A DNA stretch of 64,000 bases from an uncultured virus (IMG/VR IMGVR_UViG_3300028591_000115) (IMGVR_UViG_3300028591_000115); one strand, 5' to 3'. Counted from the stretch's first letter, positions 1 through 64,000 are shown. Translations and numbers: made by a program. The notes: a model not told the origin generated them from the sequence alone.

Positions 1-3000
1 AGGAGATAATTTAGGTAAATTCTGGAATGCATTGGCTTTGATCTGTGCAAGAGAAGCAGGAAGATCAACATAAACTAACCGATCATCGCCATAGAAGCAA
101 TTTGCCGGGAATGAATCAATTAAATCTGGTGTTATAGAAACTCCAGATCTATCATCACAACCACTGAAGAAAATATGAGTTACATAAGGTTGCCAGCTTA
201 AGTTACCACCATCCATGCCTTCATCAGCAACAACACGAGTGAAGTCATTACTTTCGATTTTGCTAGATAACAAGCCAATAACATTATATTCTTCAGGATC
301 TCCTCCACCTGGCGCCCATGTAATTTTATTAGGAATACAAATCTTACCACGGAGATAAGAGTTAATCTTAACTGTTACATTAACATTATTACCATTGACT
401 AATTGTACTTCTAATTCGTTCGCGGTTAATGGATTTGCATATACACTTTCCTTTTGGAAAGTTGCATATACTGTTGTGTCTCTATCAATTTTGATAGGAT
501 TTTCATTAGTATGAATTTCTGCATTGTCTTCAAGAGTCAAACGCCAACCTTTAAACTTATAAGTCTAAGTAAGTGGAAGAGCACTATCATCTTTCCAAGG
601 AATTTCATTACTAAATTCTACATTCCTACCAGAAACAGCAATAGTAGTTAATGGAAGATCCCATTCATGAGTAATAGGATTATACTTGCAAACTGGAGTT
701 GTGCCATCATCCATCATATAAGTTACAGTGTAACCATGAACGGCATATACAGCAACAAATGTATAAACAACATTCTCACCTTCAAGTGTATAGTCACTTA
801 AAGAAGCAGAAGTTTTATTTGTACCATTAACGTTAATAACTGTGTTATTACGTTCACCTGGAGTTACATTCTTTTCCATCCAATCATTATGAGTAGAACC
901 CTTTGCTTCCCAATCGAAGGTACTAGATTCTTCAATTGACCAACCTAAGAAGTCATAATGCAACCTTGTAGGCGTATCATAATTATAGGTAATAATTGGA
1001 CTTAATCCTTGAATACCTGGCAAATATTTCTGAGAACCAAATTCATGAATTGAACCATCTGGTAAGTATTCAATGAATCTTGCACGGTTCGCAGGAGTTA
1101 CATAATTTGCAGTAATATCAAGTTTAGGGAAGTGAGTATTCTTCTGATAATAAGCAAAGATTTCAGCTTCATTAATACGAGTTTCCTCAGTATTGTTGAC
1201 ATGTAAACTACCACTGATAGTAGGAATAACTTTTGCGCCCTGAGTATTGCCAACAGGTCTGAAATAATAACTTTCATATCTGATTGCACTATTATCTAAC
1301 TCAGTGTAGAAATGATGAAGCATTTCAAGATCTTTGATTGGGCTTGGGCCCTTCACTGTATCATAAATATAAACCAAACCATTCTTAACATCCTTAGCCC
1401 ACTGGCTTTGATTAGTATATACATACTGTTGATAGGTTACGTAAGAAGATTCGCGTTTATAATAATTAGCAGCTTTAGTACCATCATAAATAGCATCAGG
1501 ATCAACCTGAGTATATGGAGTCCATTCAACATTTGCACAAGAAATGCTTAATTCTTTTGTCGTAGCTGTTGCATCATCTAATGTACCAGCTTGCGCCTTA
1601 AGTTTAATATTATAAAGATAATTTAATAAACGATAAGAACCATAGCCCAACTTGGTGTCATCTAATTGAATCAAGTCAATCTTTGATGTAGCAGAACTTG
1701 GAATTTCACCAGAAGTTTCAAATGCTACTAATTTATCGGTTAAATTATCAATATATAATCCGATTGGATCTGCACCCTCATTTACATGAGTAGGTTTGGT
1801 AGTTAACAAATTAGTTAACTTAAGTGGACGTTGTAAACTAATCATAGTAACAGTTGCAGGCAAATAAACAGTAGTTAAAACACTACCTTGCGGCAATGCA
1901 ACTTCACCAATCTTAGTACCTAATAACTTTAATACCTCAAGTTTTGCGCACTTATTAACTTTAGGGTCAGACTGTAATTCAGACAAGTTACTCAAGTCTA
2001 CTAAGCGAAGCAAGCCTTTTTCACCAACTTCAACAGAAGTTAAAGCAATATTTCTGTAACCGTTCTGATCATCACCAACTTTAAGCTCACGTAAACGTTC
2101 AGCATTAGTAATATCTAATTCATTAAGATATTTATTAGCTAAGTCGCCAATACTAGACAAGTACTGAGGTCCACGAATATAAGCTAATTGCTGTGTTAAT
2201 GCAGTACCTAAATCTGCCTTCTTTTGGATGGAGATTGGAGGTAATACAGTTACATTCTTAGCATTGCCACCAAGTTTAAACTTCTGTACTGCAGAAGGAG
2301 TTTCATCATAAAGTACAGAAACATACTGTGATAAGTATGGAGTAACAATATAAGAAGCACTAGAAGGATAAGTATTAGAAGAAGTTCTATCTTTATCATT
2401 CAAGTTATAACGCATCTTAATCTGAGTCTTTGTGCTTAATGGATCATATGCGCCAGCTGCCCATGCAGAGTCAAGATAATTAAATCTATTTCTAATCATG
2501 GTCTTTCTTTGTAAGCTTCTATCACCCTGTAAGCAGTAGTAATAAAGTGAAGTCTTTTTAATATTACCCTCTTGGTCAGTATAACCAATAGTGGCAGGAG
2601 CAAGATACTTATAATAAGCATCATAGTTCTTCATGACAGGAGACCATTTATCACTACCATTAGTTTCAAAGTAATATTCAACTTTTTCTTGGTTAAAGTT
2701 TGCTTTACGTAATGCATTATACATCTTCATGATTTCACTCTTGAAGCAAATATATATATTGTTCCATAAAACAGAACCATTACCAGAGAAAATAGAATCG
2801 GTAGAACCGGTTTCAGAATATACTTCAACATCTGGAACAGTTTCCCCATCAATTGTACGTGTTACCGCGCGCAATGCCAATGGAGGAGTTGCATCTTCAT
2901 CATAATCCCAATAAACCTGACCAGAGTTATTAACACCTAATTGTGTATCAAGGTCATAGAAAATTGGATACCAAATATATTCGCCACCTGGAGTTTCTGG

Positions 3001-42415: not shown

Positions 42416-42942
42416 TATAATTCAATATCTTCTTTACTATGCGTTGATTGATAAATCGCAGTAAGACCCATAAGTTGTTCATTAAGAACCAAATCATTAC
42501 ATCCTATAAACTATAATGTTCCAATTCCTGTCAACTTTTGATTATTAAATAATGCATCAATATGCCCAATAATTTTATAAGGACGTAATTGGAAATCTCC
42601 CAAATTCCAATGATCTGGATGACAAAGAACATCAAAACTAATTGTATGATCTCTAAATTCTTGATTATTAGGATTGGGTACAAAATTATCAAATGTAATA
42701 ATTACCTAAACAGGACAATCTTTATCTATGTCAATTTTAGGCACAATACGAATCTGTCTATTTAACATACCAATAATTTGCTCAGGTTGCAAATCATCGG
42801 CTTTTAAACAATCCGGCTGAGTATAATATAATAACTTCATAAGATCTTGGTCTTTCAACATCTTACGAGCAATTAACTTAAAATCCTTTTCAACAGTCAT
42901 GAAACTGGATTTAGGATCAAAATATTCCTTACCTACTCGCAT
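42415..42942 (-). CDS. Probable tail terminator/completion protein (~175 aa, TAG-recoded)
   Basis: Reads through TAG 42706 into FRDHTISFDVLCH..W...LRPYKI and ends at TAA 42415; function inferred from gene order. Confidence 0.6.
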
Positions 42943-55036: not shown

Positions 55037-55570
55037 ATGAAGGTATATCTTGCAGGTCCAGTAGTTACAAATGATCCTATAGTGAAACAACAAATGGAAA
55101 CTTTAGAAACAACACTTAATAATATGCGCATCTATAATAGATATTCTGATATAGAAAAAGAATATGTGGAAGTCTATCGTCCAGGTAAACATAAAGTCCC
55201 TAATGCATGGGGTATTGATATGGCAACTTGGGGTCAATGTGTATTTACAATGGATGTTATTGCTATTGATAAATGTGAATGGATGGTGCTCGCAGATTAT
55301 GGTCGACAAGCCACTGCCGGCACAAGCTGGGAAGCTGGATATGCTTTTGCAAAGGGAATTAAAATTCTTGTCGTACAGATGCCTGGTGTAGAAGAATCTA
55401 GTCTTATGACACAAGGCTGTGCCGCAAACATTTGTAAGTACGAAGATTTTATTTCTGGCATTGATTGCGATGAACGTAATTGTGCTGTATATGATGAAAT
55501 TTGGGATCATAAATATGAACACTTCTTTTTTGAGCGTGGTCGTAAACCACAAGAAAGGGTGTTAAATTAA
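55037..55570 (+). CDS. Nucleoside 2-deoxyribosyltransferase / nucleotide N-glycosidase family protein
   Basis: MKVYLAGP, DVIAIDKCEWMV and GTSWEAGYAFAKGIKILV motifs. Confidence 0.8.
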   Translation: MKVYLAGPVVTNDPIVKQQMETLETTLNNMRIYNRYSDIEKEYVEVYRPGKHKVPNAWGIDMATWGQCVFTMDVIAIDKCEWMVLADYGRQATAGTSWEAGYAFAKGIKILVVQMPGVEESSLMTQGCAANICKYEDFISGIDCDERNCAVYDEIWDHKYEHFFFERGRKPQERVLN

Positions 55571-57696: not shown

Positions 57697-57796
57697 AAAA
57701 AAATTGTTACAAAAGTATTAAACATTCAAAAAAGGGGTTGTAATGCAACCCCTTTTGTGGTATACTCTTATCAGATCAAGAGAGGAGGACACCACG

Positions 57797-58198
57797 ATGA
57801 CTTACTACTGGGACATGGACGGAGTGCTCGCCAACTTCCACAAGGCTTACGCTAATGACCGGGCTATCGCCCTCAAGCGTGAAGCGATGGCGAACCTTGA
57901 GCCCTTCATGGCCAACGTGGTTACCGTCCGGAATCTGATGGCTGAAGGCCACACCTGCTACATCCTCACCAAGGCCGCCAACGCTGAAGGCGCTGAAGGC
58001 AAGGTCGAGTGGCTCGCCAAGTACATCCCCGAGATGGACGAGGCCCACACCATCATCATCACCAAGGGCCGCAAGGTTGACAACATCCGTGAGGATGGAA
58101 TCCTGGTGGATGATGATGCCGCCAACACCCGGCAGTGGGAAAAGGCCGGACACAAGGCCATCCTCCTCACCACCAAGGGCGAGGCCGTCCGGATCTGA
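57797..58198 (+). CDS. HAD-superfamily phosphatase, 5'(3')-deoxyribonucleotidase-like (133 aa)
   Basis: WDMDGVLANF (motif I), ILT, K and ILVDD motifs; GGAGG RBS. Confidence 0.8.
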   Translation: MTYYWDMDGVLANFHKAYANDRAIALKREAMANLEPFMANVVTVRNLMAEGHTCYILTKAANAEGAEGKVEWLAKYIPEMDEAHTIIITKGRKVDNIREDGILVDDDAANTRQWEKAGHKAILLTTKGEAVRI

Positions 58199-58467: not shown

Positions 58468-58776
58468 ATGATCAACATCAGGAGCATCAACAAGCTGCAG
58501 GACAACGACGGGCTGACGCTCAAGGCAGGCAAGCCTATCACCTACAAGACTGGTTGGCAGGTCGCCACAGAAGGCGTCGAGTGCAAGACGGCTCGTGAGT
58601 GCATCAAGGCTGTCAAGGCGTATGGTGGTAACTGCGGCGTGTGGTACAGCGAAGGGATCTATTACGTGGACAAGAGCCACAGGGTAAACACGAAGCGCGA
58701 AGCCATGACCATTGGCAAGGCTTGCAATCAGATCAGCGTCCTGCGGTGGCGTGACATGGGCCTTGCCTACTGCTAA
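58468..58776 (+). CDS. Hypothetical protein (102 aa)
   Basis: Own promoter and AGGAGG RBS. Confidence 0.8.
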   Translation: MINIRSINKLQDNDGLTLKAGKPITYKTGWQVATEGVECKTARECIKAVKAYGGNCGVWYSEGIYYVDKSHRVNTKREAMTIGKACNQISVLRWRDMGLAYC

Positions 58777-58854
58777 AAAAAGTTTGTAAAAAGTGTTGAC
58801 AAACCGCATGTAATGTGCTATACTTACATCATCAAGAGAGAGGAGCGCAAGGCA

Positions 58855-59004
58855 ATGAGCAAGTGGTACACAGTCAATCATGGAGCAATCACACTGGAGC
58901 AGACCTTCAACACCTACGAGGAAGCCGAGCTGATGGCCATGGCCATGGCAGTGACTGACCAGCACGTGTGGCATGTGGAGATGGTGATCGGTTGGGATCG
59001 GTGA
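58855..59004 (+). CDS. Hypothetical small protein (49 aa)
   Basis: Own promoter and AGGAG RBS; a terminator-like hairpin overlaps the stop. Confidence 0.65.
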   Translation: MSKWYTVNHGAITLEQTFNTYEEAELMAMAMAVTDQHVWHVEMVIGWDR

Positions 59005-59143
59005 CCCCAGCCTTTTCATTTGCACGCGCGCCAGCGGGCCTGGCGCGCGTTATTGCGCTATAGAACAGGATCCAGAAAAATTTATTTCGGGAAATGTGAA
59101 AAAAAGTGTTGACTTCTGATCCCGTTTCTGCTATACTATCATC

Positions 59144-59215
59144 AGTGAGAGAGAGTAGCAACTCTTGAAGGGCGCTCGACAGAGCCAGAGGTGGCCCACC
59201 AAAAAAAACTGCTAC
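59144..59215 (+). ncRNA. Putative small structured RNA, copy 1 of a three-member family
   Basis: Promoter at 59109-59137 and no ORF; GTAGCA/TGCTAC closing stem around ACTCTT-gaa-GGGC-hairpin-GCCC-A-tract. Confidence 0.6.
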
Positions 59216-59292
59216 AAATTTTGAAAAAACCCTTGACAGGATCAGCAAAAGGTGCTATACTCTTATCAGATCAAGAGAGGAGCGGATGAACG

Positions 59293-59559
59293 ATGATGAA
59301 CTACGAAGTCAAGAGCTACAGCTTCTTCCGGACGCCCAATGGTGGAGCCGATTATGTCAATGATGGAAAGCTGTTCCACCTGTCCGCTGAAATGCTGAAT
59401 TGCCTGCTGAATCAGTATAAGGTCATGGGCTTCAAAGTGATCTTTGACAACGACAGCTTCGTGAGCGTTGCCAAAGTCACCAACGAAATTGAAGTGTTCA
59501 GCGCTCGCATGGATGAAATGGCGCGCAACCTGCGGGAAGCTCGCGCAGAAAATAAATAA
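59293..59559 (+). CDS. Hypothetical protein (88 aa)
   Basis: Own promoter and GAGGAG RBS. Confidence 0.75.
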   Translation: MMNYEVKSYSFFRTPNGGADYVNDGKLFHLSAEMLNCLLNQYKVMGFKVIFDNDSFVSVAKVTNEIEVFSARMDEMARNLREARAENK

Positions 59560-59640
59560 AAAAAATTCAAAAAAAGGGTTGACAAAAAACCCGATCCATG
59601 TTAGAATAAATCATCGAAAGAAGCAAGGGAGGACGAAACG

Positions 59641-59868
59641 ATGATCCGTGAAAGCAAGATGACCTTCAAGCAGGTGGGTGCCCAGTCCGTTGACATTTAC
59701 TGCCAGACCCGGGATGACAATGGCCCGTGGCAGAAGCAGGGGATCATCCCGATCCGGGGCACCGTGGAAGAGGTCATGGCCCAGCAGATGGCCAATCAGG
59801 AGCGGTGGGGCTGGACTCCCTACGACATCGAGGACGGCGACACCCTCACCTTCTGGAAGGAGTTCTGA
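59641..59868 (+). CDS. Hypothetical protein (75 aa)
   Basis: Own promoter and GGAGG RBS. Confidence 0.75.
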   Translation: MIRESKMTFKQVGAQSVDIYCQTRDDNGPWQKQGIIPIRGTVEEVMAQQMANQERWGWTPYDIEDGDTLTFWKEF

Positions 59869-60017
59869 TCGCTCCAGAAGAATAAAAAAAGTGTTGACAA
59901 ACTGATTGACCTATGATACAATAACAATGTCGGGAGGGGTTACTCAATCAACCCTCAGAAGTAGCCGTAAAAAGTAGGGAACCTCCCGACCACTTAAAAC
60001 AATAGGAGGAAACAAAA

Positions 60018-60239
60018 ATGATGACCATGACAAGACAATTCACAATCGGCGATCTAGCACTGTTCAACCTCATGCAGGATGTGCGGAACATGGTAGATGA
60101 TTTCACCGCTGATAAGTTCGGCCCAAAGGTCAAAATGACCGCTGAAGAATTCGCCGATCTGATGGATCACATGGCGAAAAGCGCAAGGAACCTGGCCCAG
60201 GCCGAAGCCGTAAAGGCTGAACGCTCCAAGCGCACCTAA
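60018..60239 (+). CDS. Hypothetical protein (73 aa) with a structured 5' leader
   Basis: AGGAGG RBS; leader stem at 59929-59990. Confidence 0.75.
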   Translation: MMTMTRQFTIGDLALFNLMQDVRNMVDDFTADKFGPKVKMTAEEFADLMDHMAKSARNLAQAEAVKAERSKRT

Positions 60240-60368
60240 CACAGACGCAGCCCCCTCTCGCTTCTCTCCTTTCAGGCGGGAGGGTTTCTTTTTGGCCGAC
60301 CGCGCGCGACCGGCGCGGTCGGCATTTGAGTTGTAAAGGGGTCTCAGGGTTTGTGCTTGCGAAAGGGT

Positions 60369-60487
60369 AAAAAAAAGAGCGGGGATCGGACTCCCGCAAT
60401 GCCATCGGCTTTTGTTTTGCTGGGCTCGCCCGGCTCCGTGAGGAGCGCCCTAGAGGAGTGCCGGTGGATCACTACCATCTCCCTGTG
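60369..60487 (-). ncRNA. Putative small structured RNA, copy 2, with its own terminator
   Basis: Minus-strand TTGACA-17-TATCTT promoter; core ACTCCTCTAGGGC-hairpin-GCGAGCCCAGCAAAACAAAAG; terminator GCGGG..CCCGC plus T-run. Confidence 0.65.
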
Positions 60488-60654
60488 ACTATAAGATATC
60501 ATACTTTGCTCTATTTGTCAACTACTTTTTGCAATTTTCTTCAACTTTTTTTTGAAGAAAATAAATTGTTACAATTTTGTTAAATCTGCGAAAAAGGGGT
60601 TGTATTCTGATCCGATCTATGGTAATATAATGGTGCGAAAGGAAGGTGCTCTGA

Positions 60655-61089
60655 ATGAAGATCTGGTTCGACATGGATGGAACGATCGCCGATCTGTACG
60701 GCGTGACTGATTGGCTCCCGGCTCTGATCGCCGAAGATACCCGCCCTTACGAAGTGGCGAAGGGGATCGGCAATCTCGCTCTGATCGCTCGGCTCCTCAA
60801 CAAGGTGCAGGCGAACGGTCACGAGATTGGAATCATCTCTTGGACGGCTAAAGCCGGAACCGCCGGATACAACGCTCGGATTTACGCCGCAAAGGTTGGT
60901 TGGCTCGGCAAGCACCTTCCTTCCGTAAACTGGGACACGATCCTTGTCAAGCCCTACGGAACTGACAAGCGGGTTGCCACTGGTGGCGGGATCCTCTTCG
61001 ATGATGAGGAACCGAACCGGATCGGATGGGGCGAAGGCGCCCACACTCCTGCCGAGATCGTGGAAGTCCTCAAGGCTCTTACCAGATAA
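60655..61089 (+). CDS. Second HAD-superfamily phosphatase paralogue (144 aa)
   Basis: FDMDGTIADLY, IISW, K and ILFDD motifs. Confidence 0.75.
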   Translation: MKIWFDMDGTIADLYGVTDWLPALIAEDTRPYEVAKGIGNLALIARLLNKVQANGHEIGIISWTAKAGTAGYNARIYAAKVGWLGKHLPSVNWDTILVKPYGTDKRVATGGGILFDDEEPNRIGWGEGAHTPAEIVEVLKALTR

Positions 61090-61319
61090 GACAATGTCAA
61101 ATCTGGTAAACTAAAACTGACGCAGCACCCCTGACCTTCCTCCTTGGGTTGGGGGTTTTCCTTATTTTGTGGGCTGCGCGCCGGCGGTCGCCTGCGCGCA
61201 GTATTTCGGCTAATTAGGAGGATCAGAAAAAATTTTTTTGAAAAAGTTGTGAAAAAAGGGTTGACAGATTATCCCTTATCGTGTATAATGACTACAGTAA
61301 GAAACAGGAGGTAACCACC

Positions 61320-61493
61320 ATGAAGCTGATCGCCACCGTCAACAATCTCCCCGCCAACCTCTCCAAGTACGCTTGGATCACCGCTCGCGCTGTCGATGGC
61401 GAGCTCTGGTTCTACGGCGCTTGGTACGATGAGGATGGCGCTCGGGCTCAGGCTCGGGAGATCGACGGCATCGCCCTCAAGGTTGAGGGCTGA
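61320..61493 (+). CDS. Hypothetical small protein (57 aa)
   Basis: Perfect TTGACA-17-TATAAT promoter and AGGAGG RBS; ARAVDGELWFYGAW. Confidence 0.75.
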   Translation: MKLIATVNNLPANLSKYAWITARAVDGELWFYGAWYDEDGARAQAREIDGIALKVEG

Positions 61494-61560
61494 TGCTGAA
61501 AAAATTCAGCATCTATCCTGTTATAATAAGAGTGTAAGAAAGAGAGAGGAGTAAACGAAA

Positions 61561-61857
61561 ATGACTACCTACACCGATCTGATCCGCAAGATGGATAATC
61601 CCCGCTACGTTGGCAAGATGGACAAACCGGTCAAGCGGGTTAATAAAGTCTATGATCTGTTTATTGATGGATCTTACATCAAGACCGAATACCACAAGAA
61701 CAACGATCAGCTTGCTATTGGTCGGCTGATGGATCACGCTCGATACTACATCGACAAGATGAACCGGCTCGGCGGTGATCCCGCCGGTGAGATTGAGATC
61801 CGGATCACTGACAGGGATGGAAAAATTTCTTTCAAGAAATTTTCCAAAAACGCTTGA
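61561..61857 (+). CDS. Hypothetical protein (98 aa)
   Basis: AGGAG RBS; extended -10 (TGtTATAAT) upstream. Confidence 0.7.
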   Translation: MTTYTDLIRKMDNPRYVGKMDKPVKRVNKVYDLFIDGSYIKTEYHKNNDQLAIGRLMDHARYYIDKMNRLGGDPAGEIEIRITDRDGKISFKKFSKNA

Positions 61858-61912
61858 CAGGATCAAGCAAACCTGCTATAATGTAACCATCAAGAGAGAG
61901 GAGCGAAAGACA

Positions 61913-62188
61913 ATGACAAGCAAGAAATTCGCAGGACACGAAAAGGCCGCCGCTAAGATCAACTACTACGAAGACGGCTCCATGGAACTGGTGAGCTACA
62001 AGACCGTGGTTGCCACGGTTGACCCCGAAGGTTGGGTGCACCTCAACGGCCTGTACAGCATGACCACGATCAAGCACATCGGTTGGTTCGCCCGGCTGAT
62101 CGGTACGGACTACCACACGCTGAAAGGCCTCATGGTCGACCACAAGGACATGAACCTCAACACCGGCGAGGTGGTGGATTGGGAGTAA
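61913..62188 (+). CDS. Phage hypothetical protein (91 aa)
   Basis: Own promoter, RBS and terminator; LVSYKTVVA...YSMTTIKH pattern typical of small phage early proteins. Confidence 0.75.
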   Translation: MTSKKFAGHEKAAAKINYYEDGSMELVSYKTVVATVDPEGWVHLNGLYSMTTIKHIGWFARLIGTDYHTLKGLMVDHKDMNLNTGEVVDWE

Positions 62189-62350
62189 TCCCAATCCTTT
62201 TTCTTTTGAGCCGGTCGTTGCTGGGCGCGACGACCGGCATTTAGATTTTGGTAGGGTCTGCATAATTATACAATCGCATTGCATAAAAAAAGTGCTTGAC
62301 AGCCGATCCTGTATCTGGTACAATAGTGGTGGAAAGGAAGGTGCTACCCC

Positions 62351-62785
62351 ATGACTGAACTGACTGCGATCCGTGACTTCGTTGAGCTGATCACCGGCAT
62401 CCGCCCTGTGATCGCACGCAAGCGTGACGATTGGTCTGTTATTTCCGAAGCCGACTCCATGCGGATGACCGTCCCCACGGTCTACACCGGCTCCGAAACT
62501 GACAAGGCTTTCCGCAAGGACTTTGTGAGCCGTTGCCCTCTTGCCCGGGGCTTCGCTGATGTTACCATTAGCATCCTGCACGAGATGGGGCACTTCGCCA
62601 CCCGTGACAACTTCAACAGCGATGTGTACACCGCACAAGTTGAGGAAGCCGGCGCCGACATGGAAAAATACATGGCGATCCCTTACGAGATGCTCGCCAC
62701 CTGTTGGGCGATCTGTTGGCTGATGGATCCGGACAACCGGAAAGAAGCCAAAAATTTTGAGAAAAATTTCTTCGGAAGGGGTTGA
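62351..62785 (+). CDS. Putative HExxH zinc metallopeptidase-like protein (144 aa)
   Basis: ILHEMGH with downstream PYEMLA as a candidate third ligand. Confidence 0.65.
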   Translation: MTELTAIRDFVELITGIRPVIARKRDDWSVISEADSMRMTVPTVYTGSETDKAFRKDFVSRCPLARGFADVTISILHEMGHFATRDNFNSDVYTAQVEEAGADMEKYMAIPYEMLATCWAICWLMDPDNRKEAKNFEKNFFGRG

Positions 62786-62816
62786 CAAACCGCCCCGGAT
62801 CTGATACAATGATCAT

Positions 62817-63099
62817 GTTGAAAGGAGATGGTTCCGATGGGGATCGAAGCCCCCGGCCCGCAGGCAGGTGCGAAGCGGGCCACATGGGCGGGAGGTAAGC
62901 ACCCAGCCGGTTGAGGAGAGGGCCCCCAAGACCGGCAAGCGAACCTTGGCAAGTGAATGGAGGATGGCCACCGCCTTAAGAAGCCCCAGGGAGGCTGAAG
63001 CCGATTGCGAGAGCGCAAGTTGCTCGTGTAAGACCTTCAAACTCGGGAAACGAGGATGCCCCGAACCCTGTTGATACAGAGCCGAACGGCTCTTTTTTT
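62817..63099 (+). ncRNA. Putative ~280 nt structured ncRNA
   Basis: Promoter at 62782-62810 and terminator at 63079-63099; 5' GGTTC..GGGGATC can pair with 3' GAT.CCCC.GAACC; many short hairpins; only a 25-28 codon ORF. Confidence 0.6.
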
Positions 63100-63223
63100 A
63101 TTGGCCGAGCGTGCGCGGGCCACACGCTCGGCATTTGGGATCAGCTAAGGGTTCAGAAAAAAAATTTTGCAAATCGGCCAAAAAAGTGTTGACAAATGGC
63201 TCCCGTTATGGTATTCTATACTC

Positions 63224-63674
63224 ACCGGAAGGGGTTAGAGCCCGGGGCCACGGGTGCCAAAGCCGATGGAAGGAGCTACGCGCGGAGCGCCCCGCGCGCG
63301 GAAGAACCCGGGGGGTTGGAGTAGCGCACCAAGGGCCGAAGGCCAAGGCCGGATCTCCCGGGGCCGAAACTACTACGTTGAGGGTAGGCAGAGCCGGAAC
63401 ATCGGGTAGCCGAGCCGGTGGGGCCCATGAGAGCCTGTAAGACCTCCCCAATGAAACGACCGCAGGCCGAAGTCCTACTCTGCGGTATACGGGGCGAGGA
63501 ACCCCGGGGTCCGAAAGGGCTCAAATGTGCGGGCAACAACAGGGGAGCGTCTGGGACCCCGGGGCCAGTAGGATGGACGCAAAGGGTGGTAACCTGCCCG
63601 ACGAAGAGCCGGGCTTGAGACCTCAAGTGCGAGGACGAATAGCCAACAGAGGGATCAGCTGATCCCCCTTTTTT
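63224..63674 (+). ncRNA. Putative ~450 nt highly structured ncRNA
   Basis: Promoter at 63189-63217 and terminator at 63650-63674; end-to-end pairing, many GC stems and a 7 bp pseudoknot candidate; no RBS-led ORF. Confidence 0.7.
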
Positions 63675-63802
63675 CATTTGAGCTGGTCGCGGGCGGCCGC
63701 GCGCGACCAGTTTTCACGCTTCAGAGAGGATCCAGAAAAAAAGATTTGCAAAAGGCAGAAAAAAAGTGTTGACATCGGCTCCCGGATGTGGTATTATACT
63801 GT

Positions 63803-63912
63803 CAGAGGGAGAAGGCAGTGAACCGGCTGACACTCCTAAAGGGCGCCGAAAGGCAAGTGCGAGCCCCGCAAAACAAAAGTCACCGGCACGGGCGGGTCCG
63901 AACCGCCCACAA
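63803..63912 (+). ncRNA. Putative small structured RNA, copy 3
   Basis: Promoter at 63769-63797; core ACTCCTAAAGGGC-GCCGAAAGGC-aagt-GCGAGCCCCGCAAAACAAAAG; closing stem; 3' hairpin GGGCGG..CCGCCC. Confidence 0.65.
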
Positions 63913-63976
63913 AAAAGTTGTTGACAGATCATAAGGTCTGTGCTATAATGAAGCCATCAAGAGAAGGGAGCTAACC

Positions 63977-64000
63977 ATGATGAATACCGAAGTTATCAAG
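63977..64000 (+). CDS. Start of the next small gene (partial)
   Basis: Promoter at 63921-63949, GGGAG RBS and ATG at 63977. Confidence 0.5.

Follow-up and report, generated by a model that had tools for sequence, protein, structure and literature searches.

H-type pseudoknots with an A-rich loop are found in the preQ1-II and SAM-II aptamers and in viral frameshift signals. To our knowledge, few structured small RNAs encoded by phages lack a partner protein gene, and for hardly any of these has the role been established. The putRNA of phage HK022 is described as a nascent RNA that is made close to the promoter and needs no partner to act on RNA polymerase (PMC9378689). Type III antitoxins are encoded as arrays of tandem repeats, with a terminator and then a ToxN-type gene behind them (PMC5086642), and phage mimicry by pseudo-ToxI has been documented (PMC3475682; PMC5086642). 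Here we describe a family of structured RNAs encoded by an uncultured virus, IMGVR_UViG_3300028591_000115. The window is the whole 64-kb stretch of this record, and coordinates are counted from its first letter. Three units in it are paralogues that encode a small RNA not catalogued before, ~75-120 nucleotides (nt) long with leader.

A first-pass annotation of the window had proposed three promoter-driven units devoid of an open reading frame (ORF), and these were confirmed at 59144-59215 (+), 60487-60369 (-) and 63803-63912 (+), 1.2 and 3.4 kb apart with both strands represented. The motif pattern ACTCYT-N3-GGGC-N8-30-GCCC-N2-8-AAAA matched four times at three places in the window (two matches overlap at unit 2), compared with a mean of 0.01 in shuffles, none of which (0/100) reached four. 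A consensus scan placed a sigma-70-type, TG-extended promoter on the unit's own strand 6-8 nt upstream of each unit, and the promoter of unit 2 stands back to back with that of the NT5C-like gene at 60655-61089. Promoter-like sites number 13 in the 5.2-kb region against 3.3 expected; repeat analysis showed that the unit promoters belong to the same repeated cassette type that drives the neighbouring small genes. No ORF is conserved across the copies, the core being without ATG and its GTG frames being unlike between copies. Tandem Repeats Finder returned no tandem array of the unit in 58500-64000, where the units are dispersed, and ARAGORN found 0 tRNA or tmRNA genes in the window. The units, their promoters and their 3' elements are listed below with scores from two covariance models, R1 (built from five copies) and R2; G001 is the nearest related record.

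59109..59137 (+), promoter of unit 1, TTGACT-17-TATACT, TG-extended; repeat families D1-D3
59144..59215 (+), unit 1 RNA (leader and core), R1 73.0 bits, E 5e-20
60493..60521 (-), promoter of unit 2, TTGACA-17-TATCTT, TG-extended
60398..60487 (-), unit 2 RNA (leader and core), R1 37.8 bits; the identical G001 copy scores 49.7 bits with R2
60369..60397 (-), unit 2 3' hairpin and U-run, intrinsic-terminator-like, read from the sequence
63769..63797 (+), promoter of unit 3, TTGACA-17-TATTAT, TG-extended
63803..63889 (+), unit 3 RNA (leader and core), R1 81.7 bits, E 1e-22
63890..63912 (+), unit 3 3' GC-rich hairpin, then an A-run and no U-run; next promoter at 63921

The RNA has five helices (P0, P1, P2, P3 and P4) supported by covariation, and at least one pseudoknot. 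In an alignment of the core fitted to the covariance model (13 distinct rows, P2 outside the model), 93.7% of cells are paired, compared with 76.0% in column shuffles, and 0/500 shuffles were as high; slid-partner controls gave 26-43%. Both sides of a pair have changed at 5/6 pairs of P1, 1/4 of P2, 1/3 of P3 and 2/3 of P4. In a second alignment of leader and core (MAFFT, 14 rows), pairing holds for 70/70 cells of P0, 56/56 of P2 and 41/42 of P4, against 36-54% in slid controls. The first-pass proposal of a real RNA family with covarying stems is supported.

P0 departs from that earlier description, which had treated ACUCYU as a free consensus strand; it pairs instead with the 5' leader in every cell of the alignment. 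Copies start CA(G/C)N-GGGAG, the pentamer being complementary to the CUCCU of ACUCYU, and GGGAG is replaced in unit 1 and in the copy from record G009. These replacements are compensatory, affect 2/5 pairs, are independent and occur in one copy each. Both ACUCUU and the leader GAGAG are found in unit 1 and in no other copy; unit 1 carries a G-C to A-U change (CUCUU/GAGAG) where its close relative L420 has CUCCU/GGGAG, and G009 carries A-U to U-A (ACACCU with leader GGGUG).

The remaining helices had been recognised in outline. The closing stems (P1) do differ between units and still pair, except for one C.A mismatch in unit 2; that of unit 3 pairs as proposed, with a bulged C that had been overlooked, and is extendable by GUG/CAC. 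The inner hairpins (P3), the RGCCC motif and the A-rich run read as described. P3 varies in length and loop (GAAA, GCAA, GACA, UCAC, CUCG) and is for that reason best seen as structural rather than as a recognition site. The complementary arms proposed to flank RGCCC (P4) are mostly present, the exception being unit 2, whose arms GCG/AGC form 2/3 pairs. Finally, the GGGC:GCCC pairing (P2) is strengthened by a compensatory variant, AGGC:GCCU, in 3/14 copies.

Of the two strands of P1, the 5' one is inside the P0 loop and the 3' one comes last in the core. The two helices are therefore interleaved and make an H-type pseudoknot, the second in the RNA and one absent from the first-pass annotation. 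Its first loop is 3-4 nt, its junction 1 nt (the A of ACUCYU) and its third loop long, the last 9 nt of that loop forming the A-rich strand directly before the P1 3' strand. From standard pseudoknot geometry, this strand should run in the P0 minor groove. The layout resembles other H-type pseudoknots with an A-rich third loop in its two interleaved helices, 0-1 nt junction, 3-4 nt loop 1, A-rich strand immediately 5' of the closing strand of helix 2, and structured insert in the long loop. The insert consists of NNA, RGGC, the variable P3, a purine linker and the P4 hairpin (3 bp); P2 is formed between RGGC and RGCCY, the 5-nt loop of that hairpin. P2 and P4 interleave too, and the core is fixed among paralogues while the peripheral helices vary freely. 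Nested minimum-free-energy (MFE) folding shows P0 or P1, never both; at full length, P0 appeared in 5/12 structures and P1 in 2/12 (dot-brackets read by eye), and downstream flanks disturbed several folds. The helices of each unit are as follows.

59147-59151 with 59162-59166 (+), unit 1 P0, leader GAGAG with ACUCUU
59155-59160 with 59210-59215 (+), unit 1 P1
59170-59173 with 59194-59197 (+), unit 1 P2
59174-59185 (+), unit 1 P3 hairpin
59190-59192 with 59198-59200 (+), unit 1 P4
59201-59209 (+), unit 1 A-rich strand
60483-60479 with 60458-60454 (-), unit 2 P0
60467-60460 with 60409-60402 (-), unit 2 P1, one C.A mismatch
60450-60447 with 60425-60422 (-), unit 2 P2
60446-60433 (-), unit 2 P3 hairpin
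60429-60427 with 60421-60419 (-), unit 2 P4, 2/3 pairs
60418-60410 (-), unit 2 A-rich strand
63807-63811 with 63833-63837 (+), unit 3 P0
63823-63831 with 63879-63886 (+), unit 3 P1, bulged C; extendable 63818-63820 with 63887-63889
63841-63844 with 63863-63866 (+), unit 3 P2
63845-63854 (+), unit 3 P3 hairpin
63859-63861 with 63867-63869 (+), unit 3 P4
63870-63878 (+), unit 3 A-rich strand

The model building and phage metagenome search that had been suggested as a check were carried out, and recovered at least 14 distinct copies from five IMG/VR records and at least seven metagenome contigs. Metagenome-derived counts refer to copies among the 120 loci listed and are lower bounds. Within the window R1 found only the three units, the next match scoring 10.5 bits. 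On whole records it recovered all three units again in G001, a pair of copies in the 149-kb record G004, and single copies in G002 and G003. On the metagenome loci it yielded 8 accepted matches at E<=0.01; seven are strong (55-85 bits) and include a sequence identical to unit 1, and the eighth is the weak match L410, rejected below. R2 added one further copy, in G009. Scores of the 14 copies range from 37.8 to 85 bits with R1 (74.1 with R2 for G009), E 5e-9 to 2e-24, and a TTGACA-17-TAnnnT promoter lies upstream on the same strand in 14/14. Among the matches listed, copies have been seen so far only in related large uncultured phages from ruminant gut samples.

In IMG/VR, a strict pattern returned 110 stretches with 6 true copies on reading, and a tighter one 12 stretches, comprising 7 copies and 5 chance matches. 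Two looser patterns matched at least 119 and at least 120 stretches. The 5'-half pattern GGGAG...ACTCCT..ARGGCGC found 32 stretches, including 6 known copies and no new one, and the four stretches holding the P2-P3 20-mer were all in already known records. For a 14-mer from the loop of the relatives' 3' hairpin, no member was present among the 104 matches listed; two of these have flanking complementarity, and both look coding. Genomes representing one per species (185,579) contained no copy and a single chance match. That match, in a metagenome-assembled genome of Bacteroidota, was rejected, having neither closing stem nor P3. Locus L410 (20.6 bits, E 0.0013) was likewise set aside, with no promoter or leader and with GC-rich, coding-like flanks, and none of the weak covariance-model matches in G003 (E 0.087), G006 (E 0.37), L675, L712, L691 and L711 was accepted.

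The carriers are large (~130-190 kb) uncultured Bacillota-type phages of the ruminant gut. Compared by large terminase, the nearest cultured phages are those of Enterococcus, Geobacillus, Bacillus and Lactococcus, at <60% identity, in keeping with the type of promoter and with the strong ribosome-binding sites of GGAG form. Among RNA libraries the best representation was in a sheep-gut metatranscriptome, and others were from bovine gut. Two relatives, of 193 kb and 180 kb and each rated 100% complete, lack the RNA, which is present in only 4/80 related loci retrieved via the NT5C-like protein. The RNA is accessory and cassette-like in its distribution.

At first pass the RNA could not be matched to a known class, and the Rfam check then suggested found no family in Rfam 15: there were 0 matches at the gathering score in the 64-kb window. 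At E<=10 around the units the only match to overlap one of them was SAM-II, which lay on the A-run of unit 1 and scored 19 bits where the gathering score is 44, and at E<=1 in the loci of eight relatives nothing fell on the motif. For a published catalogue of ~10,000 viral candidate RNAs (PMC10690425), a 16-nt core string and two record numbers are absent from the portion of the supplementary text covered by the search. The RNA is a new family with an unusual architecture within the orphan promoter-driven phage small RNAs.

We tentatively favour, with somewhat less than even confidence, an early RNA that stands alone, acts in trans, is protected at its ends and has an invariant core to which a factor of the host or the phage binds. 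Host RNA polymerase would transcribe each unit from its strong early promoter, beginning 3-4 nt before the GGGAG leader, and the leader would pair with CUCCU to form P0. The P0 hairpin loop would then offer the 5' strand of P1 to its partner at the 3' end of the core, tying the ends of the transcript together. The product would be an abundant, nuclease-protected early RNA acting in trans, whose invariant P2/P4/A-rich core may be recognised by, sequester or modulate a protein or possibly a small ligand. Its role would be accessory, in host takeover or counter-defence, rather than a core phage function. The constrained fold, strong promoters, paralogues and accessory behaviour make the RNA a tractable candidate for manipulating Bacillota hosts.

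A bolder version of this proposal, which we hold to be unlikely, is an RNA-only weapon for counter-defence or takeover, in which P0 and P1 provide a nuclease-resistant scaffold and the core captures an immune component. The captured component might be an RNA-cutting abortive-infection enzyme or a signalling nucleotide, and the different ORF-less RNAs of relatives in the same genomic slot (see below) would be alternative payloads on this scaffold. If so, these slot-swapped RNAs would form a diversifying arsenal of RNA decoys, comparable to protein anti-defence islands, and would give phage counter-defence an RNA-based entry; otherwise the family is one more orphan RNA motif.

Several observations weigh against a stand-alone, trans-acting RNA. 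The covariation comes from few lineages, with two haplotypes each for P2 and P4 and single-copy changes in P0, and MFE z-scores of the core are ordinary (-0.03 to -1.69); support for the fold lies in covariation and not in energy. By geometric reasoning P2 and P4 together are sterically tight, 1 nt spanning a 4-bp helix with no linker on the other side, and the two may therefore alternate. GGGAG 5' hairpins are general in early transcripts of these phages, mRNAs included, and P0 may be merely a generic 5' stabiliser. As such hairpins also head ordinary mRNAs, P0 looks like this family's own version of a widely used 5'-end design, and ACUCYU as one strand of an end-locking helix points to a general design rule for these early transcripts. 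One further case is the 5' untranslated region at 59923-60017 (+) of the gene 60018-60239, which starts GUCGGGAGG; this pairs with CCUCCCGAC ~50 nt downstream in a GGGAG 5'-end helix enclosing a structured insert.

Expression data, also among these points, consisted of contigs from four ruminant metatranscriptome runs aligned to 58800-64000. In the best run (sheep gut), contigs match with 0 differences and break between cassettes. One metatranscriptome contig covers 63768-64000 over unit 3, where DNA carry-over is possible, and the deepest contig coverage, 28x, is in the ORF-less region 63105-63710 (DNA may be present). No contig of the 4 RNA runs covers the bin holding unit 1, and the bin of unit 2 has depth only in X1; the contigs being blind to small RNAs, this speaks neither for expression nor against it. 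Such contigs, uninformative on RNA ends and small RNAs, are the whole of the expression support and amount to a weak hint.

The arrangement of 3' ends bears on the foremost alternative, a cis-acting early leader that serves as a 5' stabiliser or as a put-type element for processive antitermination past cassette terminators. Unit 1 (next promoter beginning at 59233) and the copies L420 and L479 have no terminator and lead straight into the next promoter and gene, and the 3' hairpin of unit 3 is without a U-run. All four lie between two promoters in tandem, and nothing that would terminate effectively stands ahead of the following gene, which keeps a cis role in consideration and counts further against action in trans; terminator-like hairpins close all the cassettes of the region, and the GGGAG 5' hairpins noted above are general. 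The HK022 putRNA is a precedent, since it too is a structured phage RNA directly past early promoters with no dedicated protein gene, the likeness seen being one of position (PMC9378689). Yet put acts in cis before the genes it serves, according to the same source, whereas several copies here are terminated at once or face away from genes. Unit 2 and the G004b copy converge on neighbouring cassettes; unit 2 and eight relatives' copies end in their own 3' hairpin, with a U-run directly after it in the six from G002, G003, G004b, L396, L402 and G009 and none in L409 and L466. The hairpin of unit 2 was not listed by the consensus terminator scan (its stem has an extra C). Moreover, the genes downstream of other copies carry a full promoter and a ribosome-binding site of their own. 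On balance a cis-acting leader is an improbable account, if one to be taken seriously.

Another alternative is a ligand aptamer that lacks an expression platform, either a sponge for a metabolite or immune nucleotide or a degenerate riboswitch. A near-invariant core with variable peripheral helices is typical of aptamer conservation, and the RNA is compact and doubly pseudoknotted, with near-invariant junction and helix nucleotides and free peripheral helices, and is multicopy under strong early promoters. Set against this, no Rfam riboswitch matched, and the gene context of small unknown ORFs and NT5C-like genes points to no ligand. Nor is there a regulated ORF or expression platform: no ORF lies within the transcript in unit 2 or G004b. 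Unlike the pseudoknot riboswitches (preQ1-II, SAM-II), the RNA is stand-alone and multicopy, with no regulated ORF or ribosome-binding site downstream and with GGGAG at its extreme 5' end. We regard an aptamer of this kind as quite unlikely.

An antitoxin mimic of type III, or another decoy for an A-tract-cutting abortive-infection RNase, is a special case of the decoy proposal and would account for an early, phage-encoded, pseudoknotted small RNA with an exposed A-run. The RNA resembles ToxI/CptI and pseudo-ToxI in being small and pseudoknotted with an A-rich strand, and pseudo-ToxI supplies the precedent for RNA mimicry by phages (PMC5086642; PMC3475682). However, it has ~2x the monomer length, and its units are single and dispersed where type III antitoxins form tandem arrays (PMC5086642). 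No Rfam antitoxin family matched, and no ToxN/AbiQ/CptN-type gene occurs among the 12 neighbouring ORFs. A type III antitoxin array (ToxI/CptI/TenpI) was rejected outright for want of both a tandem arrangement and an adjoining toxin gene, and a mimic or decoy appears very unlikely.

Very little probability attaches to a base-pairing small RNA with CUCCU as an anti-Shine-Dalgarno seed, for which the complementarity of CUCCU to the phage-wide GGAG-type ribosome-binding sites (repeat family D5) can be cited. The strand is internally paired in 14/14 copies, and the compensatory changes of G009 (ACACCU/GGGUG) and unit 1 (CUCUU/GAGAG) indicate that selection keeps the internal helix and not the anti-Shine-Dalgarno sequence. 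A small self-cleaving ribozyme is the least probable of all. The RNA has the size and pseudoknotted architecture of the class and phages often carry small ribozymes, but no Rfam model (twister, pistol, hatchet, HDV-like, hammerhead) matched, there is no processing partner (tRNA, repeat junction), and the helix order is, we presume, unlike the nested double pseudoknot of the HDV-like class.

The setting of the units is a block of small cassettes at 55-64 kb, each made up of promoter, gene and terminator, which runs on the + strand and diverges from the structural genes. Genes nearby encode small unknown proteins, two NT5C-like nucleotidases and one nucleoside deoxyribosyltransferase, the last two types being the only Pfam matches on 12 neighbouring ORFs; neither Pfam nor PHROGs identified an RNA-binding or toxin gene adjoining the units. 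The NT5C/HAD-type 5'-nucleotidases are two diverged paralogues at 57743-58198 (+) and 60655-61089 (+), and the nucleoside 2-deoxyribosyltransferase lies at 55037-55570 in the same early region, which together suggests nucleotide-pool remodelling. Unit 2 is divergent from the nucleotidase gene at 60655-61089, an arrangement repeated in G002 and G004, where the NT5C-like protein is only 65-67% identical.

In three further relatives, L637, L638 and L649, the promoter and leader of unit 2 (ATAGTCACAGGG...) are followed by different ORF-less sequences, so that the slot by the NT5C-like gene looks like a site of cassette swapping of RNA genes.

L637:2272-2376, L638:2346-2388 onward and L649:~2250-2396 (-), swapped ORF-less RNAs in the slot divergent from the NT5C-like gene

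By eye, the L637 RNA has GGGAG, a loop holding GCCAC, A-CUCCC, NNA and a 4-bp G/C helix, with GUGGC near its 3' end, and thus repeats the layout from P0 loop to 3' end in this one instance. A blastn search against the related loci collected returned only the self-match.

Directly 3' of the core, seven relatives' copies carry a second module with a covarying stem and a conserved apex, GACAGGUAAGACC (L093:354-385, L095:354-386, L363 (the G004b 3' flank), L396, L402, L409 and L466). A U-run follows the module in 5/7, and the window copies lack the module. The apex, which reads GUCAGG... in G002, can form GGU-AAG-ACC after a GACA bulge, and this resembles the GAGA-GGU...ACC of the core. The octamer GTAAGACC, which is the apex of the relatives' 3' hairpin module, occurs in the window at 42461, 43991, 46136, 63028 and 63437 (+), five times against 0.91 expected (0/100 shuffles reach 5), and two of the occurrences are in large ORF-less regions.

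Two long ORF-less elements also stand in this block. The first, at 62782-63100 (+), has a promoter (62782-62810), ~270 nt of GC-rich sequence and a terminator-like hairpin (63078-63093) with a T-run. The second, at 63189-63676 (+), has a promoter (63189-63217), ~440 nt of GC-rich sequence in which CCCGGGG-type repeats occur five times, and, at 63651-63666, a terminator-like hairpin. It shows the 28x contig depth that is the highest of the region, and a look-alike occurs in G004 beside the NT5C-like gene. Both contain GUAAGACC, and neither matches Rfam. Past the terminators, GC-rich palindromic hairpins, each with ATTT directly behind it (repeat families D7 and D9), occur at every cassette boundary, and may be bidirectional terminators or marks of cassette junctions.

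~59024-59050, 60295-60323, ~61173-61201, 62210-62238, ~63103-63133 and ~63683-63711, boundary hairpins

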